A DNA stretch of 64,000 nt from an uncultured Alphaproteobacteria bacterium (lineage in GTDB: Bacteria; Pseudomonadota; Alphaproteobacteria; RF32; CAG-239). The notes under the pieces are model-generated. The model made no database searches. It was not told the DNA's origin and saw only the letters and a list, made by a program, of their open reading frames with translations. Shown one piece after another: positions 40,886 through 56,512 of the stretch. Positions within the stretch are counted from its first letter, which is position 1, and each line of letters opens with the position of its first letter. The translations under genes were made by a program, and so were the position numbers. The stretch is from assembly GCA_944390895.1 (NCBI GenBank), contig CALXRQ010000002.1, positions 12,016 through 76,015 of the forward strand. The letters are read 5' to 3'.

Positions 40886-40894
40886 GAGGGCGCC

Positions 40895-41793: not shown

Positions 41794-42084
41794 ATGAAAG
41801 AAATGGTCTTAAAAGCAGTGGCAAATCCTCCCAAGATTTTGTGGGGGCCCTTTTTGCCGGTTTTGCTCAACATCGGCTTGCAGTTTCCGCTGATGTTTAT
41901 GGCCATTGGCGTATTCAACATGAACCCGCTGTTTTTCTTGGTCAGTATTGTCATTGTCCATGTTTTTATCGTGTCGCTCGGCGTCAAGGAGCCTCATCTT
42001 TCGACGATGATTCAGGCTTTTGGTCAGACCCGCAAGCCGACTACCAATTTGTATAAGGTAAAGGGAGATAAATTTGCCCCGTGA
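41794..42084 (+). CDS. virB3: VirB3/TrbD-family protein
   Basis: It is 96 aa with two TM helices and an ..VKEPHLSTMI segment. It overlaps the virB4 start. Confidence 0.75.
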   Translation: MKEMVLKAVANPPKILWGPFLPVLLNIGLQFPLMFMAIGVFNMNPLFFLVSIVIVHVFIVSLGVKEPHLSTMIQAFGQTRKPTTNLYKVKGDKFAP

Positions 42085-44506
42085 TTTTGACTTTTTCAGC
42101 ATCTTTGTGCAAGGGCTGACAAATATAGAAGTTTTGGTTGCCGTCATCGGCTTCATCTCCGCGGCGGCCTTTGCCGGATTCTGGGCTACGAAATTCGGTC
42201 ATTTGATTCTGCCGCAGCCGAATGAATCCCGGGTTTCGGACTTTTTGCCTTTCAATAAGATTATGTCGGACGGTATTACCATTAAGTGCTACAACGGTTC
42301 CATGGTAAGAGTTTTCAAGGTTGAAGGTATTGACCTGTCTTTTGTAACCGAAGAAAAAGTCTTTTCAATGTATGAGGCCCGCAAGTCATGGATTGACGGC
42401 ATGTCGGATCTTCAGGTCGTCTGCCGGGTCATTACCCTGCGCGAGCGTATTCCTCTGGAAGAAGATGCCGGCGATTTCGGCAACCAGATTTTGGAACAGG
42501 TTTCGCAAACCTGGGCGCAGAATTTGGATCGCGTTTACAGCAACACACACTATATCGTGCTTTCGGTTCCTGATCGTCCCGAGGCGCTGAAAGATCTGAA
42601 CTATGCTTCGCAGGCGCTGCTGGCCACCTTGAACGACTACGGCGTCAAAACGCTTTACGAAACGGAAGACAGCCCGGCGGCGGACAGTCCGCTTTCGGTT
42701 TACGCCAAAATTTGCAGCCCTATATCCAAGCCTGCACCGAAAGTCCGCGGCGCCGAGGGCGCTATGCTTAACCAGATGCTGACGGCGGATCATATTCATT
42801 TTACGGGCGAAGAAGGACTTATCAAATTTTTCTCCGGAAACAGGGAAGTCTATGAAATCACCATGGGCATCCGCACTTCCGGCGATTATATGGACGAGGG
42901 TATGATTTCGTCTTTGCTGGCTATCGACTGCGAACTTAATCTGGTTCATAACATTAAACCCATTTTCAAACCGCATGCGCGCGCGCTTTTAATGCAGCAG
43001 CAGCGTATGGCGGCCATGACCAGTTTTTCCGGTGAGGTTGTCAATCAATATGCCGAAGCGCTGGCTTCCATTGAAGACAGCGACGCCGATTATCAGGCTT
43101 TGACCGAATATGCGCTTTCAATCGTTCTGCGCGGCGAAAGTCTGGAAGAAATTGAGTTCGGAGAAAGCGAAGTCCAGCGTATCTGCCGTCTGTTCAGCGT
43201 TACGCCGGTACGTGAAGGCTGGGTTGCCCAGGCCACATTTTTCAACCAGTTTCCGACTTATGAAACCTATCCCAGAACCTATCGTTATCTGTCCCGCGTT
43301 GTGGCAACGGCAATTTGTTTTGACAAACCTTCCGAAGGCTTTGGCAAAAGCGACTGGGGAAAGGGCGCCATCAGCGTTTTCCGTACTACCTCGGGATCGG
43401 CTTATCGTTTCCAGTTTCACGTTTCTCCCGAAGATGCCGCTGTTGCGCACTGCTGCATTATCGGACCTACCGGTCAGGGTAAAACGACTTTGCTGACCTT
43501 CCTTGCCGGACAGGCGATGCGCCACCGCGATTTGAAGGTGTTCTTCTTCGACCGTCACCGCGGTGCCGAAATCTTTACCCGTTCCATCGGCGGTGCCTAT
43601 ATCGGCTTTGACGGTGACGAAAAAAATGTCTCCATCAACCCCTTTGACTGTGCCAATACGCCTGACAACAGGGCTTTCCTGCGTCGCTGGATGAAGGCGA
43701 TTACCATGGTTGACGACGCTCAGTCGGAAAAGGAAATCGCGCGTGCCGTTACCACCGCGTTTGATTATCTGCGCCCCGAAGAGCGGATTATGAAAAACCT
43801 TTATAAAAGCTGTTTTTCTCCGACCGGAAATATGCGCCGCGAACTTTTCAAATGGGTTAATCCCGATCAGTACGGCAATATTTTCAATGCCGATACCGAC
43901 AGCCTTGACTTAAAGTCCAAACGCTTTATGGCTTTTGACTTCACGCATATTTTTGAAGACGAAACTCTGGCGCCGGCCGTCATCAGCTATATCATGCACC
44001 GCATTATGTCTGAAACCGGCGACAGCGGCGTTCCGTCTCTGATTATGATTGATGAAACCGCGCCGATGTTAAAACACCCGATGTTCCGTGATTATTTCAT
44101 CATCGGTTTGCAGGAAGGCCGTAAAAAACGTCAGGCTTATCTTTGCGCATTTCAACAGCCGAGCATCATTGACAAACTCGGCGTCGGCGAGGTTATCCGC
44201 GGACAATGCCAGACCGTTTTGTTTTTCCGCAACCCGCAGGGTATGCCGGAAGACTATGCTAACTGGAATCTGACCAAGAGCGAAACCGACTTCATTTTCG
44301 GTCGCAGTTATCGTGATTTTCCGTATGCCATTCTGTTGTCGCGTCCGGCTACCGGTGAATCGGTCATTTTGGATGTGGATTTAAGCGGTCTGGGCGTTTA
44401 CCTGAAGCTGTATAACTCCGGTCGTAAGAACGTATTGCTGGTAGAAGAGCTCATCAAGGAATATGGTGAAGACAAGTTTGTTACAAAATATTTAAATATT
44501 GCGTGA
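42074..44506 (+). CDS. virB4: VirB4/TrbE-family T4SS ATPase
   Basis: It is 810 aa. It has Walker A IIGPTGQGKTT and Walker B SLIMIDETAP, and the N-terminal domain follows the VirB4 pattern (DGITIKCYNGSMVRVFKVEGIDLSF). The start is a TTG with an AAGGGAGA RBS. Confidence 0.9.
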   Translation: MPRDFDFFSIFVQGLTNIEVLVAVIGFISAAAFAGFWATKFGHLILPQPNESRVSDFLPFNKIMSDGITIKCYNGSMVRVFKVEGIDLSFVTEEKVFSMYEARKSWIDGMSDLQVVCRVITLRERIPLEEDAGDFGNQILEQVSQTWAQNLDRVYSNTHYIVLSVPDRPEALKDLNYASQALLATLNDYGVKTLYETEDSPAADSPLSVYAKICSPISKPAPKVRGAEGAMLNQMLTADHIHFTGEEGLIKFFSGNREVYEITMGIRTSGDYMDEGMISSLLAIDCELNLVHNIKPIFKPHARALLMQQQRMAAMTSFSGEVVNQYAEALASIEDSDADYQALTEYALSIVLRGESLEEIEFGESEVQRICRLFSVTPVREGWVAQATFFNQFPTYETYPRTYRYLSRVVATAICFDKPSEGFGKSDWGKGAISVFRTTSGSAYRFQFHVSPEDAAVAHCCIIGPTGQGKTTLLTFLAGQAMRHRDLKVFFFDRHRGAEIFTRSIGGAYIGFDGDEKNVSINPFDCANTPDNRAFLRRWMKAITMVDDAQSEKEIARAVTTAFDYLRPEERIMKNLYKSCFSPTGNMRRELFKWVNPDQYGNIFNADTDSLDLKSKRFMAFDFTHIFEDETLAPAVISYIMHRIMSETGDSGVPSLIMIDETAPMLKHPMFRDYFIIGLQEGRKKRQAYLCAFQQPSIIDKLGVGEVIRGQCQTVLFFRNPQGMPEDYANWNLTKSETDFIFGRSYRDFPYAILLSRPATGESVILDVDLSGLGVYLKLYNSGRKNVLLVEELIKEYGEDKFVTKYLNIA

Positions 44507-44588: not shown

Positions 44589-45629
44589 ATGTTGACGAAT
44601 AAAAAGATTTGGGCTGCGGCGGCCATTGCCTGCTTTTTAGTCGCGGCTCCGGCCAGAGCTCAGTTTATAGCATTTGCTCCGCAAGAAATCGCACAGGCTA
44701 TCAAACGTGCCGTTACCGATGTCAGCAATTCCAAAGTCATCGGCTTTGCCAAAAAGGCCGGCGAAGGGCTTCAGAGCGCCATGGGCAAGTTCAACGAAGC
44801 GATGAACGGTTTTATCAAGAACAATCTCGGCTGCCGTGTCAAACAGGTCAAGGCCGGAAAATGCAAGGTTGAGCAGAAGGCCAAAAAGGCCAAGTGCAGC
44901 AAATGGGCGCAGACGGCTTCCGCAGTCAAAAACAAAGTCAGCGAAGGTCAAAAACTTTACAAAGAAGCCAACCAGTTTATTTCCGACGCCAAAGCGCTGA
45001 TTGACGAAGGAACCTCCAAGCTTGAAGAAGGAAAGAAACTTGTCGAAGACAGCAAAAAGCTTCTTGAAGACGGCATGAGCAAGATAAAAGAAGGTCAGGA
45101 GTTGATAGAAGAAGCTGCCGCCAAGCCGAAGGAAGTTGCGTCTCTGATCAGCGAAGCCAACAGCCTGCGCAAAGAAGCCCAGGATTCTCTGGGGTCCCTG
45201 ACTTCGGGCATCGGCAAAGATACAATTGATAAAGCCAAGGCCGAGGCCGAAGACAAACAGAAAAAAGCCGAAGAACTTGAGAATAAGGCCAAACAGCTGC
45301 AAAAAGATATTGAAAATATCCAAAAAGAAGGTGAACAGCTGAAAAAAGACGGCGAAAAAATGTATGAAGAAGGCGAAAAGAAATATAAGCAGGGCGAACA
45401 GCTGACCAAAGATGCCCAGGCGTTGGTAGAAAAAGGCAAGGCGAAGAAATCCGAAGGCGAGGCGCTGTTGGCCGATGCCAAGAATTATGCCAGCAACATC
45501 GGCAAAGATACGCGCAGCGATGAAGATAAGACCTGCGACTATAATCCCGACGATGATGTCGACTGCGATGAGAAATATGGCGTTTACGAATGTAAACAGC
45601 AACTGAGCGGAGGTGCAAATGTATCGTAA
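44589..45629 (+). CDS. secreted Lys/Glu-rich coiled-coil protein with Cys-containing C-terminus
   Basis: A GGAGGTG RBS is present. The signal peptide ends ARA|QFIAFAP. There are internal E-G-x-K-L/K-E-G-E-Q-L heptad-like repeats, and the C-terminus is TCDYNPDDDVDCDEKYGVYEC. Confidence 0.6.
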   Translation: MLTNKKIWAAAAIACFLVAAPARAQFIAFAPQEIAQAIKRAVTDVSNSKVIGFAKKAGEGLQSAMGKFNEAMNGFIKNNLGCRVKQVKAGKCKVEQKAKKAKCSKWAQTASAVKNKVSEGQKLYKEANQFISDAKALIDEGTSKLEEGKKLVEDSKKLLEDGMSKIKEGQELIEEAAAKPKEVASLISEANSLRKEAQDSLGSLTSGIGKDTIDKAKAEAEDKQKKAEELENKAKQLQKDIENIQKEGEQLKKDGEKMYEEGEKKYKQGEQLTKDAQALVEKGKAKKSEGEALLADAKNYASNIGKDTRSDEDKTCDYNPDDDVDCDEKYGVYECKQQLSGGANVS

Positions 45630-46722
45630 ATTATCGTGTGTTTTATGTGCGGCTTTAACCTTGACGGCAGTTTCTGCGGTGCAGGCCGCGCCTGAAGCGG
45701 CAGATGACATTTCCGCCCGTCTGGAAAAGTTGTTGCGGGAACAGGAAAACCTTCGGCAGGAAAGCAAGGCGTTGCTGACGGATATCAGCGCTTTGGAAAA
45801 AGAACTTCCCGATACGCAGACGGCTCAGGAAGCCTTTGAAAAAAATCAGGCGGAAAAGATTGCCGCTGCCAAGGCCAGAAAAAAAGCCATGGATGAAAAA
45901 GTTGCGGACGCCAAACCCGAAGTTCGCGAACAGCCGGCCGTTCTGCCGAAATCTGCCGATGATGTGGATTTGTTCGGCGAAAATAAAAAAACCGCCGCCC
46001 CAGCTGAAAAGACGGTTCAGTCTCAACCTGTTCAAAAGTCGGACGAACCGGCGCTTTATCCGTTCCAGCGGCAGCCGGTTTACTCCGTTCCCGCCAATAC
46101 CAAAACGCCGCAGAAACGGGGGCGTCGCCCGTTTATTCGCAGCGAAATAATGCCGTCCGGAGAAGAAGTGTTTTATGCCCGTGTCCATACGCAGGACAAA
46201 TTGAGTTTTGCCAAAGAGGAAACCACGGCCTATGTCGGAACCACGGAACAGAACATTTACGTCTTTTCGGACAATATTGCCAACTATTGTCAGCTTTCGG
46301 CGGAAGATGCGGCAAAAAACAAAAATGCCAAAAAATGTCTGGATAAGATTATTGAACTGCAGTCCAGTTCCAAGCAGTCTGATAAGCGGATGGCTAAAGA
46401 ACTGGTTAACAGCAGTTTTATGGATGATAACCTCAACAGCTATGCCTTGGCCGTAGAACATAAGGTTACGGCTTCGGGTTTTGAGGAAAAGGTTTTGATA
46501 CCGTCTCAGGAGCAGTTCAGCAAATCGACAACCGAACGCGGCGATTTGCAGAACCTGACCCTGATGGCCATGGAACAGACCAAAACCGTAAACCGTCTGG
46601 TTGACGTTTATTCAACTTTGCTGAGTTTGGAATCTTTTAAGAATTTCAGCAACTTTGAGGTCAACAGCAAGGAGATTACGGATATTGAAGAGCAATACAA
46701 GGCTCAAAACAGTGACGACTGA
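45619..46722 (+). CDS. secreted hypothetical protein
   Basis: A GGAGGTG RBS precedes the ATG at 45619. The signal peptide is MYRKLSCVLCAALTLTAVSAVQA. The N-terminal half is charged. Confidence 0.6.
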   Translation: MYRKLSCVLCAALTLTAVSAVQAAPEAADDISARLEKLLREQENLRQESKALLTDISALEKELPDTQTAQEAFEKNQAEKIAAAKARKKAMDEKVADAKPEVREQPAVLPKSADDVDLFGENKKTAAPAEKTVQSQPVQKSDEPALYPFQRQPVYSVPANTKTPQKRGRRPFIRSEIMPSGEEVFYARVHTQDKLSFAKEETTAYVGTTEQNIYVFSDNIANYCQLSAEDAAKNKNAKKCLDKIIELQSSSKQSDKRMAKELVNSSFMDDNLNSYALAVEHKVTASGFEEKVLIPSQEQFSKSTTERGDLQNLTLMAMEQTKTVNRLVDVYSTLLSLESFKNFSNFEVNSKEITDIEEQYKAQNSDD

Positions 46723-46736
46723 GGGAGAATGGTATA

Positions 46737-47444
46737 ATGTCGGGCCGTTTTAAAATATTTGCGATGCTTCTGTGCGGCGGACTTATGATAAGTTCCGCAG
46801 CCGAGGCCTTTTTCCCTTTCCCATCTCCGCTGACCGGTAAAGATCCGGCCAATCTGGCGCTGGACAAAGTCGAAAACCTGACGGCAAAACTGGAAGACGC
46901 AGAACAGAAGCTTGCTACGGCCCAGAAAGAGATTGAAGAAGCAAAGGCCGGCGCTTTCGGGCCTTTGGCGCAGATTAAAGGCTATGCGGAAGCCCTGAAA
47001 GGTCTGGACATAAAGAAAGCCGTTCCCAAACTTGAAATGCCGGACTTTTTGGGTAAAAATACCAATAATAAGGATAAAATGGCGGCAGAGGTTGAAAAAA
47101 ATCTGGTTATCAAATATGACGAAACCGGTAACCAAAATGCGGCGATTGATGAACAAAACCTGAAAAGAACCGAAATCCTTCAGAACAACATCTCCACCCT
47201 GTATGCGCATGCTTTGGCAACCAGAACCAATTTGGCCAAAGAACGCGAACTTCCGCCGATGGAGGTTAATTCCGAAAGCGCAAGAGAAATTTTGGCCGCA
47301 ACCAGAGCTCTGACCGAAAGCATGGCGCGCCGCTACAATGATATTTTGTTTATGGAAGCGCAGATTTTGGAGTTTAACAGTGCCGGAGAAGTTACGGACA
47401 TTAGTCTGAACAAAGATATATCCGCTGCCGGAGAGGGAGGCTGA
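46737..47444 (+). CDS. secreted helical protein, VirB5/TrbJ-like by size and position (tentative)
   Basis: It is 235 aa. The signal peptide ends AEA|FFPFPSP, followed by a coiled coil. No motif-level proof was found. Confidence 0.4.
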   Translation: MSGRFKIFAMLLCGGLMISSAAEAFFPFPSPLTGKDPANLALDKVENLTAKLEDAEQKLATAQKEIEEAKAGAFGPLAQIKGYAEALKGLDIKKAVPKLEMPDFLGKNTNNKDKMAAEVEKNLVIKYDETGNQNAAIDEQNLKRTEILQNNISTLYAHALATRTNLAKERELPPMEVNSESAREILAATRALTESMARRYNDILFMEAQILEFNSAGEVTDISLNKDISAAGEGG

Positions 47445-47445
47445 T

Positions 47446-48627
47446 ATGAAAAAGTCCGCATTATTGACAATTATATCTCTGTTGCTGGTTTTGCAGGCGC
47501 CGTCCCGGGCCGAAGCGTTGTTGATAGCTAAATTTGACGTTATGGCCGGCGAAGTTTCGACCGCCGTTACCAAAATCACCAAGCAGGTGCAAAACGTTGC
47601 CGACAAGGTTATGAACTCGGCCATTGTTACCAAAATCGGCAAAGGTTTTGATGAGGCCAAAAAGTGGAAAGAAACGGCCGAGCAGAAAGCCAAACCCTTT
47701 GTTGATACCTATAAGGATACTCAGGCGGCCTACGACAAGGTAAAAACCGAACTGATTGACTCCAAACTGGCACAGATTAAAAAACTCAACGATGACATTT
47801 CCAATATCAAGGAGCGCAAAAACAGCCTTCAGGAAGAGATTGCCAATGTTTCGAATGAAATTCAGTCTTCGGTCGATTCGGAAATTTCGGTTATTGATGG
47901 AAAAATCAATACCATTGACCTCAACACGGAAGTTATCAAAAAGGCCATAGAACTGGATCCGAGAAAAGAAAAGAAAGCGGAATTTGAAGCGCAGCTGGCA
48001 CAGATGGAAAGCGAGCGCGAAAGTTATGTCAAACAAAAAGAACAGATAAAAGCCAATGCCGAAGCGCAGAAAAAGGCGGCGACCGAAAGTCTGCAATCTC
48101 AGGTAGACAGCCTGAACCGGGAAATACAGACGCTTTTGTCCGACTTGGGCAGCCTGACGGAAAGCACCGACAGCACGCAGGATCCCGAAAAGGCGCTGCT
48201 CTATATGCGCGATACTTATTTCATCAAAGACAACGAAAAGGAAACGCCGGCCAAAACCGAGGCCGTGCGCGTCAACCGCCTGTTGGAACGCCGCAAAAGC
48301 ATTGTTCAGGTTTATCAGGACGCCATTGAGTTGCGTCATGACATCAGAAACGTTGACGAAGACCTTGAAGATCAGGCTTATGCCACAACCATTTATGATA
48401 CGACCGGCGGTGCCGTCGGCGGCGACGCCGAAGTCCGCATCCGGCGTATGGAGGCTCTGCGCCGCTATGCGCGCCTTTTGGTTGCAGATCTGAAAATGAA
48501 AACGGCCAATGAAGTTTCTCTGCTGACTTTTACCAAACTCAAAAAGCCTCAGAAAACAATTACGGAGTTTAATCTTGACGATTATATTTTCGAAATGCCG
48601 GAAAAATCATCGGAAGGGAGTAAATGA
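47446..48627 (+). CDS. secreted coiled-coil protein
   Basis: The signal peptide ends AEA|LLIAKFDV. It has a long heptad-rich K/E/Q sequence. It is tightly packed with its neighbours. Confidence 0.6.
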   Translation: MKKSALLTIISLLLVLQAPSRAEALLIAKFDVMAGEVSTAVTKITKQVQNVADKVMNSAIVTKIGKGFDEAKKWKETAEQKAKPFVDTYKDTQAAYDKVKTELIDSKLAQIKKLNDDISNIKERKNSLQEEIANVSNEIQSSVDSEISVIDGKINTIDLNTEVIKKAIELDPRKEKKAEFEAQLAQMESERESYVKQKEQIKANAEAQKKAATESLQSQVDSLNREIQTLLSDLGSLTESTDSTQDPEKALLYMRDTYFIKDNEKETPAKTEAVRVNRLLERRKSIVQVYQDAIELRHDIRNVDEDLEDQAYATTIYDTTGGAVGGDAEVRIRRMEALRRYARLLVADLKMKTANEVSLLTFTKLKKPQKTITEFNLDDYIFEMPEKSSEGSK

Positions 48628-49316
48628 TAATGTCTGGGTTTAATCTGAAATTGTTGTTTATCTGTCTGGTGGTCAGCTTGGTTTTCTTCAGCAGCCGTGC
48701 GGAAGCCATCGGCTTTTTCGATCCCGGTTCAATGGCGACCCAGGTTGTTAACGGCGTGAACGCGACGCTGAATAAAGTGTCAACCATTGCCAATAAGGTT
48801 GTCAAGGGAACGCTTAACAAGCTGAAAGCGCTGGTGGACAAGTTTACGAGCCGCTTTAACAAAAAAGAAGAAACCAAGATTCCCGGCACCAAGGAAATCA
48901 AGGAAAGTAAAATCGCCGACATCTATGATGAAAACTCCATAAGGCCGGCGTTCCAAAAACTGTTTTTTGAATATCCGTCGGATCAGGAGCGCATTCAGCT
49001 TTTGTATGACGACAAACGGCGTGAATTCTATGATGATACGATTATTGAGGCGTTTACCGCCGTGCGCGAATTGGAAAAAAATCTTGTCGCGATAGACAAG
49101 AGGATCGCCACCGCCGGAACGACCTATACCAAAGCCGATGACTATAATGGCGGATTGTACAATAACTATATGATTGAAGTTGAAACTGACGAGCTGCTGA
49201 TAATCATTCAGGAACTGGTCGCAATCAAGGCCCAGATGGCGGCGGCAAGTGCCATGAGAGACAAGGTAAAGCCCCTTTATCACGGCAAGGCCAGCGTCGG
49301 TATCCAGCTTGACTAG
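48624..49316 (+). CDS. secreted helical protein, VirB5/TrbJ-like by size and position (tentative)
   Basis: It is 230 aa. The signal peptide ends AEA|IGFFDPGSMATQVVNGV. It has an ATGA overlap with the upstream gene. Confidence 0.4.
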   Translation: MIMSGFNLKLLFICLVVSLVFFSSRAEAIGFFDPGSMATQVVNGVNATLNKVSTIANKVVKGTLNKLKALVDKFTSRFNKKEETKIPGTKEIKESKIADIYDENSIRPAFQKLFFEYPSDQERIQLLYDDKRREFYDDTIIEAFTAVRELEKNLVAIDKRIATAGTTYTKADDYNGGLYNNYMIEVETDELLIIIQELVAIKAQMAAASAMRDKVKPLYHGKASVGIQLD

Positions 49317-49340
49317 GACATGACTATGAGGAGAACGGCA

Positions 49341-52300
49341 ATGAATATTAAAAATAAAATCAAAAATGCGGTTGCCTGCGGTATCTTGTCTGCGGCGGCG
49401 GCTTTTGCCGGCCATGCACTGGCGGCGGATGATTATTCTCCGTTTTCTGCCGGAACGGCTTCACAGTCAAAGTCCTCGTCTTCGAACTATACCGATCCTT
49501 CGCGCTACCAGACCAAAAGCATTTTGACGTTTGACGAGGCGCAAACCTCGGACGCGACCGGTCCTTTTGCCGGTTCGGAAACGCAAATGGAAGAACTGGA
49601 CAAACTGGAGCCGATTATTGAGGGTCTGCAGGCGGCAATTGATGCCCACAACACTCTGAACGGCCTGAAAAATTATCGGGATACGCAGCGCCGCTATAAT
49701 GAAATGGTTCAGCTGCACGAAAAGTCAATTGAGGTTTTAAAACAGTCGGAACAGTGCGTCATCAATTATATCGGACGTTACTTTAACAATCCGGTCAGCG
49801 TGTGGTCCGGTATTGATCTGCGCGATACGCCACAAAGTCATGATCTGCGCAAAGGCTTGTCGGCCTGGGCTTTGGAGAGTTATGAAACGGCCAAGGCTTC
49901 CCAGTTGTCTCCGATTGACGTCGGCGATGTCTCAACGCTTGACATGGACGCTTTGTCGGAGCAGTCCGATGCCTATGATAAGAAAAATGAAGAATTGGGC
50001 GAAGAAATGATAAGCGTTGACGGAACCGAAAACGCCACAGCCGATATGACGGATGCGGAAACGCTGGCTTACGCCAATCAGAATGAGGGTGATACGGCGT
50101 TGGATATTGAAAGCAAAAAGAACAACGTGAAGGAACTGTCAAATCAGCACGACGGCATCTTCTTCAAAGAGCCGGACAAGCAGGAAGCCTACGAAGAAGA
50201 TTCCCGCAAATCAGATCTGCTGCCGACGGATATCGGAACCGAGGCTTCAATGTCTTTGGCCGCAAATCCGGAAAAATGGGGTTCGGTCAAAAAAGAATTT
50301 CCGATTTGGAACGACCAGAAAACCTTTTATAATCAGTATCTTGACGGAAAATATCTGAATATTGCCCAATATATTAAAAACTTGGAAATATCTGCCGATG
50401 CACAGGATAAAATATATAAGGCGCTGCTTCAGGATCAGGCTTCCTTTATGGCCAAGGCCGAAAAGGAAATCACGCAGGCGGCCATAGCGGCGGTAACCAA
50501 GACCAATCAGCAGTATGAAAGCGAATACCGCGAACTTGAACAGAAGTATAATGCGGATGTCAGCGCGGTAGTCGGAAAAGCCAAGTCTGACGTAAGTGCT
50601 TTGGAGCAGGAGCGTGACGGCAAGGCTTCGCAGATAGATTCCGAAATTGCGTCCTTGCAGGCCCAGCGTACGTCATATGCACAGCGCCGTGAGGAACTGA
50701 TAGTTTCCAATGACGAGCTGTCCAAACTCATCAGCGAAACCAGACAGGAGCTTTCCGCTGCCGAAAGTCTGACTGCCGGTGCCGAAATGACGGACGAACA
50801 GAAAAAGGAACATGAAGAACTGGTTGCGCAGCTGAAAGGCGAAATTGCTGCAGCTCAGGCCAAGATTCAGGCGCAAAATCAGGAAAAAGCATCGGTTGAA
50901 GCCGCTTATGACCAAAAAACCGGGGAAATCGATGCCAAAACCAAAGCCAAAAACGATTTGCTGACCGAATATTCTGCTAAGATTGCCAATGTGAACAAAG
51001 CGGCGGAAACGCAAAAAACGACCCTGAAAACGGAATTTGAGAAACAAGACGAAGCTAACCGCCAAAAACGCGATGATAAGATTAAAAAGATTAATCTGGC
51101 CGCCGAAGCTGCCAAAAAAACACTGGATACCAACAGCGGCATAACGGTTAAAGACATTGTCAACACCACCAACCTGATTATTGCCATTGCCAAGGATGAC
51201 GCGGTTGCGAATATTGAAAAGGCGCGGCAGGCTTTCTACGGTCTCGGAGATGATTTATACCGCGGCCGCAAGCAGGATCAGGTTATAGAGTATCATCAGG
51301 CGCTGATTGACAACCTGCGCGGCAAAGACGTAACCCTCGGCGGTCTTGAGCTGAAAGGTGTGGGCGGAAAAGTCCGCGGCATTACCACCGAACTTGAAAC
51401 AATTGTCAGCGGCAGAGATCTGGAAAACAGCCTGAATGAAATGTATGTTGATCTCCGCAGCCAGTATATTAAAAACACCAATGTTGTACTGAATGTCAGT
51501 CTCTTTGACGATGTTTTGAAAGATATGGATACGTCTGCCGACAGCGAGTTTTTCGTCGGCGCCGTTGCCAAGGAACGCGATTTCAGGGCGCCCGGAATTA
51601 TGCCGGACTTCAACCTGCCGCCGCTGCGTGAATATGTTCATTTTGATTATATTGATTTGAAAAATGCCGTGGGAGACGCGCAGAAAATGATTGTCGGCAA
51701 AGACATCACCGAGGAGTTGTTCCCGGGTTTCCCCAACAAAGGAACCAGCATTTTCTTCAAACAGACGGAAAGCATTCCGCTTTCGGTTGTCAACAAGGAC
51801 ACATTCCTGAACTATGGCGGACGCATTCCCGAAATCTGGAAACTTATGCTTCAGGACAAGGCCTTTGTGGAAACGGATTTCTTCCTGTCCTCGTCTCTGG
51901 CGCCGGAAGATCGGAAGATTGAAAAAGATGCCTTGAAACTTGGCGGTGAGACGCTGGCTTTGTTCCGCGGCGGTATCTACCCCTGCATCGTCAAGAACAT
52001 TTCCAACTGCAAAGCGCCCGATATGATTGAAAACGGCGAGGGCATTGTTGATGTTGCCTACAATTCCAAGGGCGAATATCATGTTAACGAATATATGATG
52101 GGACTGTCCTTCGTCAAAGGCGAGCGCAGACAGGAACTGCTGGGACAGAACCTGCCGGTCTGCCAGAACATCAGCGCTGCCTGCAGCCGTTTCAAGCCGT
52201 CTTCTCCGTATTTTATCACATCAAAGGGCGAGGGACAGATAAAGCTGACCGAGCTTTCAGATAAAGAATACAGCGAGTTGGGCACGATTTTGGCGCTGAA

Positions 52301-52973
52301 CAGCGGCAAAATCGGCAACGAACGGGTCTATAACCTCTTAACCCTGACCCCGGAAATGGAATCTCTGCTGGTTTACGGTCTGCGTATGGAAGAAGCCAGC
52401 AAAAATGAAAATATGCCGGATTTGAACGCGGTTGAAAAAATAAACGACGACATTTACAAGGATGCTCAATACCGCAACAATCAGATCGGCGATTTTCTGG
52501 TTCAGGCCGAAACCGAACAAACTTATAAAAACTCGGTTGAAGAGTTGAAAACCAGCATTGACCAGATGCGCGAAGACCTTCTTGAAGTTTTGCGCAATAT
52601 GGGCTTTGCGCCGAGTGAAGATTTTGACATTTCCAAAGACAGCGACTATGATTTGGCCGTAAGCAAACTCAAGAACGTCAAGCAGAATTATCTGAATACG
52701 GTCGGAGCCAAAATCAGCAGCATCAATGACGCCGGTTCGGAATTGCTGCGCGACAGCAAACGTAACTACTCGGCTGTTTATAACGCTCTGTTGCAAGATA
52801 AGGATGCCGTCACGACAATGGGTATGGCCGTTTCGGACAGCACGTCGCTTGACGAAACCATCAAGACCGGCAAAGCCAATCTGGCGGTTGACAGCACCTA
52901 TCAGGAAACGGCCGATAAGAGTTTTGAGGAACAGCTGAACAGCTTTAACCCGGCCTATTGTGTGGCATATTAA
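49341..52973 (+). CDS. ~1210-aa secreted protein with central long coiled coil; unknown function
   Basis: A GAGGAGA RBS precedes the ATG at 49341. The signal peptide is ...AFAGHALA. No TM segments are present. I recognise no family. Confidence 0.7.
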   Translation: MNIKNKIKNAVACGILSAAAAFAGHALAADDYSPFSAGTASQSKSSSSNYTDPSRYQTKSILTFDEAQTSDATGPFAGSETQMEELDKLEPIIEGLQAAIDAHNTLNGLKNYRDTQRRYNEMVQLHEKSIEVLKQSEQCVINYIGRYFNNPVSVWSGIDLRDTPQSHDLRKGLSAWALESYETAKASQLSPIDVGDVSTLDMDALSEQSDAYDKKNEELGEEMISVDGTENATADMTDAETLAYANQNEGDTALDIESKKNNVKELSNQHDGIFFKEPDKQEAYEEDSRKSDLLPTDIGTEASMSLAANPEKWGSVKKEFPIWNDQKTFYNQYLDGKYLNIAQYIKNLEISADAQDKIYKALLQDQASFMAKAEKEITQAAIAAVTKTNQQYESEYRELEQKYNADVSAVVGKAKSDVSALEQERDGKASQIDSEIASLQAQRTSYAQRREELIVSNDELSKLISETRQELSAAESLTAGAEMTDEQKKEHEELVAQLKGEIAAAQAKIQAQNQEKASVEAAYDQKTGEIDAKTKAKNDLLTEYSAKIANVNKAAETQKTTLKTEFEKQDEANRQKRDDKIKKINLAAEAAKKTLDTNSGITVKDIVNTTNLIIAIAKDDAVANIEKARQAFYGLGDDLYRGRKQDQVIEYHQALIDNLRGKDVTLGGLELKGVGGKVRGITTELETIVSGRDLENSLNEMYVDLRSQYIKNTNVVLNVSLFDDVLKDMDTSADSEFFVGAVAKERDFRAPGIMPDFNLPPLREYVHFDYIDLKNAVGDAQKMIVGKDITEELFPGFPNKGTSIFFKQTESIPLSVVNKDTFLNYGGRIPEIWKLMLQDKAFVETDFFLSSSLAPEDRKIEKDALKLGGETLALFRGGIYPCIVKNISNCKAPDMIENGEGIVDVAYNSKGEYHVNEYMMGLSFVKGERRQELLGQNLPVCQNISAACSRFKPSSPYFITSKGEGQIKLTELSDKEYSELGTILALNSGKIGNERVYNLLTLTPEMESLLVYGLRMEEASKNENMPDLNAVEKINDDIYKDAQYRNNQIGDFLVQAETEQTYKNSVEELKTSIDQMREDLLEVLRNMGFAPSEDFDISKDSDYDLAVSKLKNVKQNYLNTVGAKISSINDAGSELLRDSKRNYSAVYNALLQDKDAVTTMGMAVSDSTSLDETIKTGKANLAVDSTYQETADKSFEEQLNSFNPAYCVAY

Positions 52974-52993: not shown

Positions 52994-53746
52994 ATGAATA
53001 ACGCAAACTCGATAACTGACGGCACCAGGGTTCTGTCCATTGAGGGCACGGCCGCTTCCCGGCAGAACTTTATCAGTGTTGAAGAAAAGGAAGTTGAAAC
53101 CTTAAAGCTCAAATATTATATGTGGCTTTCCAGACTGTTCATCCTTTTTGCTATTCTTTCGCTGTTGGTGTTTATGAGTTCGTCTTTGGCTCTTTTCAAG
53201 CTGGCGCCGATGATTAACATTGAGCCTTTTTTGGTGATTAATCAGGATGAAACTGAAGGCATTGTGCGCTATGAGCCGATAACTTCGGATATGGCCTCCA
53301 AGGACCTTCTGTTGGAAACCTTTATCAAGCAGTATGTCATCTTGCGCAATACTATCGTTAATGATGTGACTGAAATGTATAGCCGCTGGCTTCCGGGCGG
53401 AACCATTAACTATCTGTCTTCCTGGCCGGTGTTTTACCAGTTTAACGCGGCCACAATCCCGACGCTGGAAAGCCTTACTCAGTTGGATATGGTAAAAGAG
53501 GTGGAAATTATTTCCATCGGCCGTTTGGGAGGCAAACGCAGTGCTGTATGGAAAGTGGACTTCAAAACTTATGAGCTTTTGCCGCCTACGGCGCAGAGCG
53601 GCGGCGCCATGATTATGCGGGAACGCAACTGGACGGCTTCAGTAACGGCGTTTTTCTTCAAAGAGCGGCGTTTTCTTGGGCGGCGCCTGATTAATCCGAT
53701 GGGCTTTACCGTCACTCGTTATTCCCAGAGTGAAGTGGAAATCTAA
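52994..53746 (+). CDS. VirB8-family protein, paralogue 1
   Basis: It is bitopic (TM LFILFAILSLLVFMSSSLALF), followed by an NTF2-like region. The family-typical end is INPMGFTVTRYSQ. Confidence 0.7.
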   Translation: MNNANSITDGTRVLSIEGTAASRQNFISVEEKEVETLKLKYYMWLSRLFILFAILSLLVFMSSSLALFKLAPMINIEPFLVINQDETEGIVRYEPITSDMASKDLLLETFIKQYVILRNTIVNDVTEMYSRWLPGGTINYLSSWPVFYQFNAATIPTLESLTQLDMVKEVEIISIGRLGGKRSAVWKVDFKTYELLPPTAQSGGAMIMRERNWTASVTAFFFKERRFLGRRLINPMGFTVTRYSQSEVEI

Positions 53747-53867
53747 AAACTTAGCTGTTGATAAGTTGGGGATTTTCTCCGCTTGCTATTAGACTTTTAA
53801 ACTAAAAGAGTATAGTTATTAAAATAACATAAAGAGTATTTAAAAGTCAGAGAAAGGGTAAAGCGCG

Positions 53868-54056
53868 ATGAAATATGCCAAAAAGCTGTTATTGCTTCTC
53901 GTTTTGTTTTTGTTGTCAGGCTGTTTCGGGTCTTATTATGAGCCGGAGCCTGTTGGTATCGGTAAAGGCGTCAATGAGTTGAAACTTTCTCCCTGCGCCT
54001 GTCTGCAACTGGATTTGCCTAAAGAACTTCCCGATTGGTTTGTTGCGACAATATAG
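53868..54056 (+). CDS. small lipoprotein, VirB7-like by size and position
   Basis: It is 62 aa with lipobox LLSGC, and lies between the two virB8 paralogues and upstream of virB9. Confidence 0.5.
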   Translation: MKYAKKLLLLLVLFLLSGCFGSYYEPEPVGIGKGVNELKLSPCACLQLDLPKELPDWFVATI

Positions 54057-54077: not shown

Positions 54078-54812
54078 ATGGTAGATAAGCTTGAAGGAAA
54101 CAATGTTGAACAGCGTATGATCGGCGGTCGTCCGGGCCCCCGTCCTGCCGCTGCGCCGCGTCCGCGCAAAAGCGATGCTTTTGTCGCCAATGTGGCCGAA
54201 AAACGCTATTTGTGGACCGCTCGTGCATTTGCAATCATCACGGCCATCAGCATTTGCTGCAACATTGTGCTCATTCTGGCCATTATGCAGGTTATGCCTC
54301 TGTATCGTGTCGAACCGTTTCTTTTGACTTTTCAGAACAAGCAGGAACAGGTCTATAATATTCGCTCGATTGCCAATCTGGAAGATGACAAGTCCATTAC
54401 CGAAGTTTTTGTCCGCCAATATGTTCTGCTTCGCAGTTCTTTTAATCGTGATATTCCCGAAATGGAAGCGCGCTGGCTTCCCGGCGGCCCTATTCAGGAA
54501 ATGTCTTCGCCGGCCGTTTACGCGGACTTTCTTGAAAAAACCGCCAAACGGGCCATTAACGTCATTAAGAGCAAAAGCCTGACCCGCAGCGTCAAAATTA
54601 TTTCCGTCAATGAACTCAGCCGCGGCTTGTGGCAGGTTGAGTATGAAACCCGCGATATGTATCCGGACTCTCCGAAGCCTGAAGTCAATTATTGGACGGC
54701 GTCGCTGCGCATCGCTTATGTCAACAAAACCGTAAAATATGACGAACGCCTGAAAAATCCGGTCGGCTTTACGGTAACCAGATATTCATTAACCTTTAAT
54801 AAAGTAGAATAA
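54078..54812 (+). CDS. VirB8-family protein, paralogue 2
   Basis: It has the TM AFAIITAISICCNIVLILAIM, then EVFVRQYVLLRSSF and KNPVGFTVTRYSL. It is clearly paralogous to 52994..53746. Confidence 0.75.
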   Translation: MVDKLEGNNVEQRMIGGRPGPRPAAAPRPRKSDAFVANVAEKRYLWTARAFAIITAISICCNIVLILAIMQVMPLYRVEPFLLTFQNKQEQVYNIRSIANLEDDKSITEVFVRQYVLLRSSFNRDIPEMEARWLPGGPIQEMSSPAVYADFLEKTAKRAINVIKSKSLTRSVKIISVNELSRGLWQVEYETRDMYPDSPKPEVNYWTASLRIAYVNKTVKYDERLKNPVGFTVTRYSLTFNKVE

Positions 54813-54838: not shown

Positions 54839-56512
54839 ATGGTTCAAAACATTATTAAATTATTGTCCCTGAGTATGTTCTTAGCTTCTCTGCAGGTCGG
54901 AGAAGCTTTTGCGCAGGAAAACAGTTTGGACCAGAGTGCCGACCAGGATCAGGGGCAGTATCGTTCCATGGACATGAGCTATGCCGGTTTCGGTTCCATC
55001 GGCATGATGCAGAGCGCCTGGCTCGATCCTCTGCAAAATCTGGGCGAAGGTCAAAGTAAACCGGCTTACTCCAAATATTACTGGTCGCCGGATTTGGTTT
55101 TGCCGATCCGTTTGCGCGAAGGTATGATTACACTGATTAATTTTCCGTCCTGGGAAATGGTGGAAGATGTTTTTATCGGTGACAACTCAACATTTGACGG
55201 GCAGATTTCCGGGCCGAACACGGTTTTGCTGTATCCTCGTAAGGGAGCAAACGTCGGTGTCGATACCAATATCATCATTTTCGGCCGGTCCGGCAACCGC
55301 TATGTGTTTTATGTCCGCAGCGAAGGTGTCAACACCGAGCGCTTAACCAATGCCATTATTGATATTGACGTTATCGGCGCAGACAGCGGAAGCGATAACG
55401 GTTTCAGCGGCGGTGGCCGTGTCGGCGGAGGAGGACGCGGTTCGTCCATGGGTTTTAGCGGAAGCAGCTCGAAATCGGTTGCTTCTACCTACACCAAAAG
55501 ATTTCAAAAAGAAGATTGGCTGAAATCTCTGCCGGTTGATCCGGAAAAGTTTCGCTTTGACGTTGAGGTCTATGTCCCTAATCCCGATGATGTGGTAATT
55601 GCGCCCGAACGCGTATGGCGCGACGATATTTTTACCTACATTGACTTGGGAGCCAAAGCGCTGAACATGAACCAGCGTCCGATTGTAACCCTTATTAACG
55701 AAAAGGTCGAAACGCCGGTCGGTTTCCGCAGCAAAGGACCGAACAACCGGTTGATTGTGGTTGAGGCTGTCGGCGATTTGGTGCTGCGCAACGGCAAGCG
55801 CATTGTCTGCCTTAAACTGCGTCGTTCCGATTCTGCCGGCTTGGAGAATGCTATTTATGCCAATGATGAAATTCCGGGCTGGGACGTTCCGCCGCCGCTG
55901 AAGAGCGGAGATCTTGAAGCTGCTTTTAACCCGTCGCAGAACGCAGGAGCGCAAAGCGGCGGAGATTATCTGCCTCTGAGCGGTGAAAACGGAAAAATGC
56001 CCGCGCAGTATGACGTTAATGTCGGCGGCTCAGAGCTGATTGTTCCCCAATACGGCCGGGGACAGTCGTTTTCCAACCAGCCGAACATCGGTTATCAACA
56101 GCCGGGAACCGCCGGTGCGCAAATGGCCGCCGGTAACTACGACTACTCTAAAATGCAGCGTTTGCCGAACCAGTCGGAAGCCAACGCCGCCAACGGCAAC
56201 AGCAAATATCTTCAGCAGTTTGCCTATGGCACCGGTTTTACCGATACCGGCAACGCCAATATTTCCATTGAGCTCGGAACCGATGCCGATGTCAGCAATC
56301 TGGAAGGCCTCTGGGATGAACTAAACCGCAAATACACCCGCGACTTGGCCGGTTATGAGCCGTTTTATTCCGTTGACACGCCGGCCGACGGTCAGGGCAA
56401 GGAGTTGTTCCACCTGCGCGTCGGACCGATAAAAACTCTTGAAGAAGGCGATGCCATTTGTTCAAAATTAGGCCGCAATGGCGTATTTTGTAGTGTAGTC
56501 AGGACCCAATGA
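54839..56512 (+). CDS. VirB9/TrbG/CagX-family protein with Gly-rich linker and C-terminal SPOR domain
   Basis: The N-domain is VLPIRLREGMITLINFPSWEMVEDVFIGDNSTF..TNIIIFGRSGNRYVFYV. The C-domain is APERVWRDDIFTYIDLG...LVLRNGKRIVCLKL. The terminal FHLRVGPIKTLEEGDAICSKLGRNGVFCSVV is SPOR-like. Confidence 0.75.
   Translation: MVQNIIKLLSLSMFLASLQVGEAFAQENSLDQSADQDQGQYRSMDMSYAGFGSIGMMQSAWLDPLQNLGEGQSKPAYSKYYWSPDLVLPIRLREGMITLINFPSWEMVEDVFIGDNSTFDGQISGPNTVLLYPRKGANVGVDTNIIIFGRSGNRYVFYVRSEGVNTERLTNAIIDIDVIGADSGSDNGFSGGGRVGGGGRGSSMGFSGSSSKSVASTYTKRFQKEDWLKSLPVDPEKFRFDVEVYVPNPDDVVIAPERVWRDDIFTYIDLGAKALNMNQRPIVTLINEKVETPVGFRSKGPNNRLIVVEAVGDLVLRNGKRIVCLKLRRSDSAGLENAIYANDEIPGWDVPPPLKSGDLEAAFNPSQNAGAQSGGDYLPLSGENGKMPAQYDVNVGGSELIVPQYGRGQSFSNQPNIGYQQPGTAGAQMAAGNYDYSKMQRLPNQSEANAANGNSKYLQQFAYGTGFTDTGNANISIELGTDADVSNLEGLWDELNRKYTRDLAGYEPFYSVDTPADGQGKELFHLRVGPIKTLEEGDAICSKLGRNGVFCSVVRTQ

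Follow-up and report, generated by a model that had tools for sequence, protein, structure and literature searches.

A candidate VirB5-type module of six secreted proteins between virB4 and virB8 in a type IV secretion system of uncultured gut Alphaproteobacteria

VirB5, the pilus-tip protein of type IV secretion systems (T4SS), is the least understood of their conserved parts; roles in initiating pilus growth and in contacting the target cell have been ascribed to it. Its described representatives, among them A. tumefaciens VirB5, pKM101 TraC and R388 TrwJ, belong to the VirB5/TrbJ family (PF07996), which are Sec-exported, soluble, all-alpha proteins of approximately 220-250 aa. In the Cag system of Helicobacter pylori, the VirB5-like adhesin is CagL, with CagI and CagH encoded beside it, and CagY is a giant repeat-bearing VirB10. 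The Bartonella Trw system carries multiple variable copies of trwL (VirB2) and trwJ (VirB5) and is involved in host-specific erythrocyte adhesion (PMC12857230, PMC3406051). In the R388 structure, the N-terminal region of VirB5 juts from the VirB5 pentamer like the tip of a pore-former (PMC9259494).

In the window, the whole 64,000-nucleotide stretch of DNA analysed here, six ORFs (A-F) lie between virB4 and virB8. All of them were confirmed at the coordinates given in Table 1, and a Shine-Dalgarno-like GGAGG or GAGG is found 6-9 nt 5' of the start at the first coordinate of each; the alternative starts at 44574, 45613 and 49320 have no such sequence. A and B overlap by 11 nt and D and E by 4 nt, the other spacings in the block being gaps of 1-24 nt. 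A Kyte-Doolittle scan detected in each protein a single hydrophobic segment, N-terminal and followed by an AxA-type site, and no second TM-like segment in any of the six; the cleavage sites referred to below are heuristic, obtained from the hydropathy scan and the (-3,-1) rule. The mature proteins consist of 21-35% E+K+Q. The initial annotation had described six tightly packed secreted coiled-coil ORFs, four of them K/E/Q-rich after the mature N-terminus, and the coordinates, the supported starts, the single N-terminal segments and the composition bear this out.

Table 1. The block A-F and the neighbouring T4SS genes in the window.
Feature	Coordinates	Strand	Remarks
VirB2/TrbC pilin paralogue 1	40039-40410	+	PF04956
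VirB2/TrbC pilin paralogue 2	40457-40885	+	PF04956
VirB2/TrbC pilin paralogue 3	40895-41629	+	PF04956
VirB3-like gene	41794-42084	+	upstream context of the block
VirB4 ATPase	42074-44506	+	PF03135; directly 5' of the block
A	44589-45629	+	346 aa from ATG 44589; 351 aa from TTG 44574
B	45619-46722	+	367 aa from ATG 45619; own signal peptide
C	46737-47444	+	235 aa; VirB5-sized paralogue (putative); mature N-terminus FFPFPSPL
D	47446-48627	+	393 aa; longer helical paralogue (putative); mature N-terminus LLIAKFDV (W-L-L in orthologues)
E	48624-49316	+	230 aa; VirB5-sized paralogue (putative); mature N-terminus (IG)FFDPGS
F	49341-52973	+	1210 aa from ATG 49341; own signal peptide
VirB8a	52994-53746	+	Pfam match
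VirB7 lipoprotein	53868-54056	+	previously unannotated; lipobox LLSGC
VirB8b	54078-54812	+	Pfam match
VirB9 with C-terminal SPOR domain	54839-56512	+	Pfam match
Beta-flower repeat protein	56509-60390	+	Bflower_2 matches
Second giant beta-flower protein	from TTG 60393, open to window end (64000)	+	Bflower_2 matches

The block stands directly after virB4 and before virB7/virB8, the slot of VirB5 in the plasmid systems of Microvirga and Erythrobacter, and the same gene block is kept in at least 19 gut Alphaproteobacteria MAG species. The nearest annotated relatives of its VirB4 are alphaproteobacterial plasmid VirB4s (34-39% identity), and the VirB7 lipoprotein has an 'SPCAC' motif common to the Microvirga and Erythrobacter VirB7 proteins. 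The third VirB2/TrbC paralogue has a C-terminal extension and reaches 710-776 aa in relatives. The second giant beta-flower protein is the VirB10 homologue; its orthologue in locus L027 bears a TrbI/VirB10 domain at the C-terminus, and VirB11 comes next. The region from virB2 to virB11 contains no gene for VirB6, the component on which VirB5 is seated in R388. The L027 operon stops at virB11; no + strand ORF follows and no coupling-protein gene adjoins it, and in the window no VirD4 or relaxase match was obtained among the ORFs scanned. A neighbouring type IVb pilus accompanies the T4SS locus.

Distant relatives have only four genes in place of the six, namely an A-B fusion, C, D and an E-F fusion. 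A and B are fused in L019 and in L021-L023, while E and F are fused in L019-L025 and in most representatives, where they form a single protein of 1250-1850 aa. Since these relatives have only four genes, A plus B and E plus F are interpreted as split halves, and by this comparison the six ORFs derive from four ancestral genes, two of them split in two. Each 3' half (B and F) has its own signal peptide.

General searches assigned none of the six proteins. Pairwise BLASTP among A-F gave a best E of 0.006, which is not significant, and against Pfam and NCBIfam only sub-threshold matches to coiled-coil families were obtained, many of them of the SMC, Rad50 and kinetochore kind, which indicates a strong coiled-coil bias. 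PF07996 did not match any of A-F at E<=1, nor is it among the 25 most-matched families listed for 25 E-family members (E<=10); as a control, the Erythrobacter reference protein passes this model with 30.3 bits (cutoff 24.7). A PDB sequence search found no VirB5, TraC, TrwJ or CagL.

A VirB5 HMM built from mature, true PF07996 VirB5 proteins of the nearest plasmid T4SS lineage was then searched against 891 six-frame ORFs. The top ~64 matches all belong to the E, B, C or D families and the first unrelated ORF appears at E~1.9, whereas families A and F, which are equally helical and act as negative controls, fail to match. The reversed database yields at most 5.8 bits, and in 300 shuffles the real score of B, C or E was never attained. 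The alignments are collinear, reciprocal HMM searches return the VirB5 references and the sister families first, and the matches strengthen with alignment depth; removal of the signal peptides lowered the first-round hhalign probabilities to 18-51%. The HMM scores are modest (14-28 bits), come from a small targeted database and could be inflated by all-alpha composition.

The clearest match is that of E, residues 53-209 of which align with HMM positions 56-212 (17.8 bits for the window copy; best 28.2 bits, E 7.6e-8; deep-E against VirB5, hhalign 78%). Its family comprises 148 cluster representatives, mostly of 1250-1850 aa with the E domain N-terminal. For C, residues 74-220 align with HMM positions 64-214 (14.0 bits; best 18.2), 40 of 41 family members match, and hhalign gives 89% for deep-C against both VirB5 (P 2.3e-6) and deep-E. 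B consists of a signal peptide, a coiled coil, a Pro-rich linker and a VirB5-core-like C-terminus of ~90 aa, which aligns to the C-terminal part of the core (HMM positions 122-215; 15.0 bits, best in family 22.2; hhalign 51%). D, present in every related locus, is weakly VirB5-core-like at residues ~213-305; the 6.9 bits of the window copy are borderline, being reached by 1 of 300 shuffles, and the L024 homologue scores 17.5 bits. These comparisons relate E, C, the B C-terminus and, with less strength, D to genuine VirB5 proteins.

The two remaining proteins are placed through their partners. In A, a conserved N-domain precedes an E/K-rich repetitive helical region, to which the window copy adds a Cys-rich tail; A has no match to the VirB5-core HMM, and its assignment to VirB5 comes only from the N-terminal motif described below and from the fusion to B. 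A is predicted to be the Sec-exported N-terminal half, and B the C-terminal half, of a split, long VirB5-like paralogue. F contains globular regions, a central coiled coil and a conserved C-terminal 'P.CA.Y' (seen in the A3 consensus), and finds no sequence match in Pfam, NCBIfam or PDB and none to the VirB5 HMM; it is, by its position in the fusions, the detached C-terminal extension of an E-type paralogue and not itself a paralogue. These results argue, with moderate statistical strength, that the block is an expansion of VirB5-type minor pilins. This idea had been put forward in the initial annotation; HMM, reciprocal and hhalign results favour it for E, the B C-terminus, C and D, and it does not hold for F, the putative extension of E. 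The same annotation saw no counterpart for the longer ORFs, a view that has to be revised: a VirB5 core is detected in the C-terminal third of B and in the second half of D, and A-B would be the halves of a long VirB5 paralogue such as the second one found in the nearest plasmid systems.

It had also been suggested that four of the proteins begin alike after the signal peptide. Phe makes up 2.9% of mature residues, yet at least two Phe occur among the first eight residues of each of A, C and E, and the chance of this in at least 3 of 6 proteins is 1.9e-4. The patch, above chance by this count, is also conserved in orthologues: 'FGIP[SA]ID' in A, 'FFP[IF]P[VS]PL' in C, 'W[LIV][LIV].K[LF]SN' in D and '[FL]FDPGS' in E. 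Families A, C, D and deep-E have F or W as the first mature residue, which is not the case for B, F or the reference VirB5s. Conservation of the first 12 mature residues exceeds the protein average in A, C and D, does so marginally in E, and falls below it in B and F; the N-terminus of C is among its most conserved stretches.

Position 1 of the PF07996 profile is the 'IPVID' of mature VirB5. A comparable start, [IVLTM]P.[IVLF][DE], comes immediately after the signal peptide in every A orthologue from species other than that of the window ('GIP[SA]ID'), in E-F fusions ('[TV]P[TV][IV]D') and in one D homologue, that of L020 ('MPKID'); A and E-type proteins of relatives carry this VirB5-like mature N-terminal motif. 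In the window and in L007, A has a 4-residue deletion at 'FGIP[SA]ID', and the window's own N-termini (QFIAFAP, FFPFPSPL, LLIAKFD and IGFFDPGS) are degenerate versions of 'IPVxD'. This evidence supports the view that the common patch sits where VirB5 has its conserved 'IPVxD' start.

The AF2 model of E (pLDDT 77) is all-alpha, with helices at 34-78, 103-115, 122-169 and 174-214, that is, three helices of 41-48 residues and one short helix in a long-helix bundle of VirB5 size. With this pLDDT-77 model, Foldseek against the PDB returned nothing below E=0.08; CagL (3zcj; E 0.24, TM 0.33-0.44) is the only T4SS protein among the matches, and TraC and TrwJ are not in the best 50. The comparison proposed in the initial annotation, with the elongated, appendage-bearing three-helix bundle of TraC (1R8I), gave no significant match and did not confirm membership for E.

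Compared with its closest relative, L007, the window has dN/dS values of 0.03-0.08 for A-F (0.08 for A), which indicates that all six are real genes under purifying selection. The core genes give 0.003-0.013, and by this measure A-F evolve roughly 10-20 times faster than VirB4, VirB8b and VirB9. VirB4 is 99.8% identical to that of L007 and 85-90% to those of other species, while A-F show 89-96% identity to L007 and, where matched, 24-57% to other species; in the most distant locus, A and B have no tblastn match. Such fast evolution would fit tip or adhesin modules exposed at the surface, like those of Bartonella Trw.

The block resembles VirB5/TrbJ proteins in the size, export and soluble, all-alpha character of C and E, in the gene position directly after virB4, in a conserved mature N-terminus that probably lies at the same position and in weak collinear core similarity. 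It differs in being too divergent for the Pfam model, in having four paralogues rather than one, with F/W at mature +1, long coiled-coil insertions (A-B, D), an extension of more than 1000 aa (E-F) and two split genes, and in the lack of a VirB6 partner gene in its operon. The plasmid T4SS of Erythrobacter and Microvirga, the nearest lineage by VirB4 and likewise without a canonical VirB6 in the operon, encode a second, long VirB5 paralogue of 428-453 aa, annotated as hypothetical, in which, as in A-B, the VirB5 N-terminal segment and C-terminal core are parted by an insertion. This paralogue is unsplit and one of two, compared with four here, the systems are plasmid-borne with relaxase and VirD4, and no direct HMM match links it to the A-F family models.

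As in Bartonella Trw, a single chromosomal T4SS in a host-associated alphaproteobacterium has several VirB2 (3) and VirB5-like (4-6) genes, its variable parts change much faster than its core and, in L027, no coupling-protein gene is seen beside the operon. However, the Trw copies arose by recent tandem duplication of a trwJ-I-H unit and are still clearly alike, whereas the paralogues described here would be ancient, their kinship being seen only with profiles; they vary in size and architecture and show no co-amplification with VirB6 or VirB7. With H. pylori Cag the block shares neighbouring secreted helical proteins that would stand in for VirB5, and the locus shares a VirB10 enlarged by repeats, which here are beta-flower units; no sequence similarity was detected, and the CagL structural match is not significant.

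Taken together, we estimate a probability of about 70% that the block is a VirB5 (pilus-tip or stalk) module of four deeply divergent paralogues (A-B, C, D and E-F) in a chromosomal VirB/Trb-like T4SS, the two largest of which, A-B and E-F, were each split in the window's clade, giving six ORFs. The localisation and assembly of A-F are purely what we infer. Each protein would be exported by Sec, and cleavage would expose the conserved aromatic/hydrophobic N-terminus at the place of the VirB5 'IPVxD' start. A would re-join B and E would re-join F, and the proteins may assemble as homo- or hetero-oligomers atop a periplasmic stalk, from where a filament built of the three VirB2 paralogues would carry them outward. 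Spacers and variable target-binding (adhesin) parts would be provided by the long coiled coils of A/B and D and by the F module of ~1200 aa.

A related reading, which we consider unlikely, is that the VirB5-derived proteins never reach the surface and build an enlarged periplasmic stalk or cylinder in the style of Cag or Dot/Icm, partly replacing the missing VirB6. The operon indeed encodes no VirB6, the machine is otherwise enlarged (duplicated VirB8, VirB9 with a SPOR domain, giant VirB10, extra beta-flower protein), and reviews expect the stalks and cylinders of expanded systems to be VirB5/VirB6 homologues (PMC12857230). Yet A-F evolve much faster than every core envelope component, which is unusual for buried structural parts, and none of them has a membrane segment to stand in for VirB6; a stalk role is, moreover, compatible with a tip role.

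The two other explanations take the VirB5 likeness for something other than membership of a tip or stalk. That A-F are unrelated, lineage-specific coiled-coil periplasmic proteins, which look like VirB5 because they are all-alpha and rich in Q/E/K/A, agrees with the absence of a PF07996 or significant structural match, with the drop in first-round hhalign values and with the many sub-threshold SMC, Rad50 and kinetochore matches; it becomes very improbable given that shuffled and reversed controls stay below the real B, C and E scores, that families A and F, although just as helical, give no match, that the matches are reciprocal as well as collinear and gain from deeper alignments, and that the position-specific N-terminal motif is independent evidence. 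Even less probable, to the point of being remote, is a two-step release by the T4SS of Sec-exported cargo or adhesins, as for pertussis toxin, with the VirB5 likeness as docking mimicry. Ptl offers a precedent in which the toxin is a VirB5 analogue (PMC12857230), all six proteins have Sec signal peptides and no coupling-protein gene adjoins the L027 operon; but the gene position is fixed and strictly co-conserved with the core genes in every related genome, the collinear similarity spans the whole VirB5 core, and no toxin or enzyme domains were found.

Extending the VirB5-module reading, we offer a more specific proposal, which at present we consider doubtful: that this VirB6-less, coupling-protein-less T4SS is a contact or adhesion organelle kept by a whole clade of these uncultured gut Alphaproteobacteria, with a tip formed by a hetero-oligomer of four ancient VirB5 paralogues, including a giant VirB5-adhesin fusion class (E-F, 1250-1850 aa). 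The A+B and E+F halves, each exported separately by Sec, would come together again in the periplasm, and the aromatic N-terminus could be an assembly or membrane-insertion element.

As a VirB5 module, the block would offer a natural series of VirB5 forms within one lineage, from short (C, E) through coiled-coil-extended (A-B, D) to giant adhesin-fused (E-F), in fused and split states, and comparing them could tell the assembly parts of VirB5 from its target-binding parts. At present, ~150 sequence clusters of the E/E-F family are without any annotation. The block flags an uncharacterised, strongly conserved surface machine in widespread uncultured gut Alphaproteobacteria; taking into consideration the T4SS with its three pilins and giant VirB10 and the neighbouring type IVb pilus, this machine is probably central to attachment to host or microbial cells.

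The six open reading frames (ORFs) A to F, between virB4 and virB8, were found exactly where the initial annotation had placed them, and each start codon proposed there has a good Shine-Dalgarno sequence; for F, comparison of these sequences favours the start at 49341 over the mechanical one at 49320. Each protein has a single N-terminal hydrophobic segment with an AxA-type site and nothing else TM-like, as had been claimed, and the genes are indeed tightly packed, neighbours overlapping by 4-11 nt or being separated by 1-24 nt. A lipoprotein status of A and F was rejected, since 'AIAC' and 'AVAC' misfit a lipobox and orthologues do not conserve the Cys. Between the window and its closest relative, the locus L007, dN/dS is 0.03-0.08 for all six genes (0.003-0.013 for VirB4, VirB8b and VirB9), and we therefore regard them as real, constrained genes. 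On the strand opposite the coiled-coil genes there are long ORFs (268-376 aa) whose translations are Phe/Leu-rich and of low complexity; most probably these are not genes but artefacts of a sense strand rich in GAA/AAG.

Features of the type IV secretion system (T4SS) region, its neighbourhood and two compared loci
Feature	Position	Strand	Remark
Ser/Thr kinase, eukaryote-type	21182-22663	-	membrane-anchored
T2SSE-family ATPase, 335 aa	25314-26321	-	PilT or VirB11-like
Type IVb pilus cluster	~28000-39739	-	
Three VirB2/TrbC pilin paralogues	40039-41629	+	relatives in compared loci L003/L004 at 1012-3144
VirB4	42074-44506	+	
A	44589-45629	+	
B	45619-46722	+	
C	46737-47444	+	
D	47446-48627	+	
E (E230)	48624-49316	+	230 aa
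F	49341-52973	+	
VirB7 candidate, 62 aa	53868-54056	+	previously unlisted ORF between the two virB8 copies; lipobox LLSGC
VirB9	54839-56512	+	CagX domain, Gly/Ser/Gln-rich linker, C-terminal SPOR peptidoglycan-binding domain
First giant beta-flower protein	56509-60390	+	PF21785/PF21784 repeats; 3' of virB9
Second giant beta-flower protein	60393-64000	+	PF21785/PF21784 repeats
Antisense ORFs	44637-45767, 45655-46461, 46704-47693, 47461-48339, 51255-52082	-	
Extended C and E ORFs of locus L018	7370-8719, 9932-11476		449 and 514 aa
Second giant orthologue, 570-kb contig L027	11722-20208		

Curated models gave little information on these proteins. Pfam and NCBIfam scans of the six returned sub-threshold coiled-coil noise only, with neither PF07996 (the Pfam VirB5 family) nor TrbJ above noise; PF07996 was not listed in a Pfam scan of 25 E-family members, where a sub-threshold DUF4141 in 6 of the 25 was the sole recurring oddity unrelated to T4SSs, and seven giant E-F homologues were likewise without Pfam domains. 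Neither the E profile nor F had a relevant match among PDB sequences. Because the curated models fail, we built our own VirB5 HMM. A tblastn search of the Erythrobacter VirB5 against plasmids retrieved one relative only, and no broad reference was obtainable; the HMM was made from the mature parts of 44 relatives of this protein, 20 of them flagged PF07996 in precomputed annotation, and searched against 891 six-frame ORFs (at least 80 aa) from the window and loci L003-L025.

The top ~64 matches all belonged to the E, B, C or D families, the first unrelated ORF appearing at E~1.9, while the equally helical A and F families gave no match among the 891 ORFs. Best scores were 28.2 bits for E (E-value 7.6e-8), 22.2 for B, 18.0 for C and 17.5 for D, the window copies reaching 17.8, 15.0, 14.0 and 6.9 bits, respectively. 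The alignments are collinear, HMM positions 56-215 corresponding to E 53-209, C 74-220, the C-terminal B 265-347 and D 213-305, and they share motifs such as 'R..alklFfy..s' and 'R...lRes...gYa.A..l..dL'. A reversed database yielded at most 5.8 bits, and none of 300 shuffles each reached the real score for B, C and E, D being borderline; in reciprocal searches with E, B, C and D HMMs, the reference VirB5s and the sister families ranked before unrelated ORFs. With mature sequences only, hhalign gave 78% probability for the deeper E-family alignment against VirB5 (P 1.7e-5), 89% for the deeper C-family alignment against VirB5 (P 2.3e-6), 89% for the two deeper alignments against each other (P 2.7e-6) and 51% for B against VirB5 (P 1.6e-4). 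Probabilities of 84-92% were discarded, as signal peptides left in had inflated them, and a 100% C-E match was rejected as an artefact of over-extended L018 ORFs. These two ORFs contain a nearly identical 187-aa C-terminal segment, which may be an inserted repeat, a mobile element or an assembly artefact.

The proposed expansion of VirB5-type minor pilins is supported for E, C and the C-terminus of B by HMM and hhalign with clean controls, is borderline for D and finds no core match in A and F nor any backing from Pfam or PDB. The block appears to be distantly related to VirB5 and would work like VirB5; as it fails Pfam membership, it is best described as a set of new, highly divergent VirB5-like subfamilies.

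A first AlphaFold2 (AF2) model of E from 25 sequences (pLDDT 55) was useless for Foldseek; an alignment of 71 sequences including the giants raised the pLDDT to 77, residues 90-220 scoring 82-94. With helices at 34-78, 103-115, 122-169 and 174-214, E is predicted to be elongated, all-alpha and similar to VirB5 in size. In a Foldseek search of the PDB this model had no match below E=0.08; CagL (3zcj) occurred five times in the top 50 at non-significant values (best E 0.24, probability 0.8), alongside helical proteins of the alpha-pore-former/translocator kind (AhlC and SipB; ClyA with the first model), and neither TraC nor TrwJ was among the matches listed for either model. TrwJ itself superposes best on CagL and hemolysin E (Macé et al., PMC9259494), so the pattern is compatible with VirB5 and is not evidence for it.

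The block is conserved in loci L003-L018, where the six genes likewise lie between virB4 and two copies of virB8. In the distant loci L019-L025 the slot between virB4 and virB8 is filled by four genes only. The first encodes a 622-929-aa protein, whose N-terminal half matches the A model and whose C-terminal half matches the B model in L019, L021, L022 and L023; in L020, L024 and L025 it matches the B model only. The others encode C, D and a 1387-1544-aa protein that starts with the E domain and continues with F. When the E profile was used for an exhaustive HMMER search, 148 cluster representatives were retrieved, the majority being 1250-1850 aa long with the E domain at residues ~1-250, which makes the fused E-F the common form. 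Nothing in the fused proteins aligns with the signal-peptide columns of the B and F models, and each detached 3' half therefore has its own signal peptide. On grounds of parsimony, the genes would have been split in the window's clade. Together, A and B make up a complete VirB5 plan of N-terminal motif, long coiled-coil insertion and C-terminal core. This layout recurs in two 'hypothetical' proteins of 428 aa and 453 aa, encoded after VirB5 in Microvirga and Erythrobacter, which match the VirB5 HMM in two separated segments at E 1e-10 to 1e-12.

The aromatic patch said to be shared by the mature N-termini of A, C, D and E goes beyond chance, Phe being enriched just after the predicted cleavage site in the window (P about 2e-4). 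Orthologues read 'FGIP[SA]ID' in A, 'FFP[IF]P[VS]PL.G.D' in C, 'W[LIV][LIV].K[LF]SN' in D and '[FL]FDPGS' in E, with 'AxA|F[LF]..P.P[VT]P[TV][IV]D' in deep E-family members; the N-termini of B and F are polar and poorly conserved. The PF07996 model starts at 'IPVID', immediately 3' of the signal peptide in the Erythrobacter VirB5, and the pattern [IVLTM]P.[IVLF][DE] occupies this place in 42 of the 44 reference VirB5s, in every A orthologue outside the window's species, in E-F fusions of distant relatives ('TPTID', 'TPTVD') and in one D homologue ('MPKID'), the few other matches being chance or antisense ORFs. Since the orthologue motifs sit where 'IPVID' begins, the patch appears to be a local, partly degenerate form of the start of mature VirB5, in which position +1 carries an aromatic residue specific to this lineage. 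The A proteins of the window and L007 have lost 'GIPxID' through a 4-residue deletion and read QFIAFAP; they have also gained internal Cys residues and, at the C-terminus, an acidic Cys-rich tail of 40 aa that no other orthologue has. The helical part of A consists of repeats of ~11 residues resembling 'EG..L..DA..L'.

The block belongs to a single VirB/Trb-type T4SS operon running from 40.0 kb to the end of the window: three VirB2/TrbC pilins, a VirB3-like protein, VirB4, the six ORFs, VirB8, VirB7, a second VirB8, VirB9 and two giant beta-flower repeat proteins. The small lipoprotein is probably VirB7, as its motif 'GIGKG..L..SPCAC' is common to small lipoproteins preceding virB8 in Microvirga and Erythrobacter; the L007 copy shows 100% identity to it. 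In L027 the orthologue of the second giant has a C-terminal TrbI/VirB10 domain (residues 1263-1453), virB11 follows and the operon ends there; this domain identifies the second giant as VirB10, to which the repeats add more than 1000 aa in a manner that recalls CagY. An exact-sequence look-up of the 1293-aa beta-flower protein gave no record. The third VirB2 paralogue has a C-terminal extension with Cys, is 244 aa long in the window versus 710-776 aa in relatives, and evolves fastest among the three pilins (88.6% identity to L007). Directly upstream of the operon, and divergently oriented, the type IVb pilus cluster encodes a PilN-family secretin, a TcpQ-domain protein, a PilO-like protein, a PilB/GspE-type ATPase, a GspF-type platform protein, as well as several small proteins that each have a single hydrophobic segment at the N-terminus. 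The further T2SSE-family ATPase lies away from both pilus clusters, and the kinase gene a few kb upstream.

The nearest annotated relatives of VirB4 lie on plasmids of Microvirga, Sphingosinicella and Erythrobacter and share only 34-39% identity with it, and megablast of the block against plasmids found no similar DNA. Homologues of E230 are all unnamed metagenomic proteins, and the exact sequence returned no record. Scanning one genome per species, we found 19 MAGs with the E gene, which come from human and animal guts and bear the labels uncultured (Alpha)proteobacteria or Rhodospirillales without exception. L007 (MGYG-HGUT-04400) is one of them and has the operon on a 296-kb contig; the T4SS is therefore taken to be chromosomal and clade-wide. 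Operon proteins are 89-100% identical between L007 and the window, the six 89-97%. Synonymous divergence from L007 is very uneven, dS being 0.05-0.06 for VirB8a and VirB7 (52994-54056), 0.3-0.5 for VirB3, VirB4, VirB8b and VirB9, and 0.6-1.0 for the six, which suggests a recombination mosaic. We found nothing useful in the literature on T4SSs of RF32-type gut Alphaproteobacteria or on DUF4141.

In known systems, the stalk consists of a VirB5 pentamer sitting on a VirB6 pentamer; polymerisation of VirB2 is believed to take place beneath it and to bring VirB5 to the pilus tip. In the pentamer the N-terminal part of VirB5 projects like a pore-forming protein and possibly engages the target membrane (PMC9259494, PMC12857230). 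By analogy, the four paralogues would be exported by Sec, cleaved to expose the conserved aromatic N-terminus, assembled at the stalk apex with A paired to B and E to F, and carried outward on filaments of the three VirB2 paralogues; reach and binding specificity would come from the coiled coils and the F module. The six and the third VirB2 paralogue (VirB2c) evolve roughly tenfold (10-20-fold) faster than the core, and surface exposure fits this rate. Cross-species identity of the six falls to 24-57% wherever there is a match, versus 85-90% for VirB4. That the block enlarges a periplasmic stalk instead of building a surface tip seems to us unlikely; this explanation stays alive because no VirB6 is encoded from virB2 to virB11, so that VirB6 may lie elsewhere or the stalk be built differently. 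No VirB6/TrbL-like polytopic protein, VirD4 or relaxase was found in this interval (window 40039-64000; L027 1-21722; compared loci L001 and L002), nor did VirB6 turn up in the scanned window ORFs, in L027 as far as virB11 or in small ORFs from the Microvirga and Erythrobacter loci, whose plasmid systems, the nearest ones, likewise do without a canonical VirB6 between virB5 and virB7.

The many VirB2 and VirB5 variants recall Bartonella Trw, whose multiple variable copies of both are proposed to make variable pili for host-specific adhesion (PMC9259494, PMC12857230); unlike in Trw, the paralogues here are ancient, architecturally distinct and partly split. Several helical VirB5 substitutes with a giant repeat VirB10 also resemble Cag, homology to which is not detectable. 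What is unusual in this family is the giant fusion of VirB5 with an extension, and gene fission that would have occurred twice, each time with a new signal peptide.
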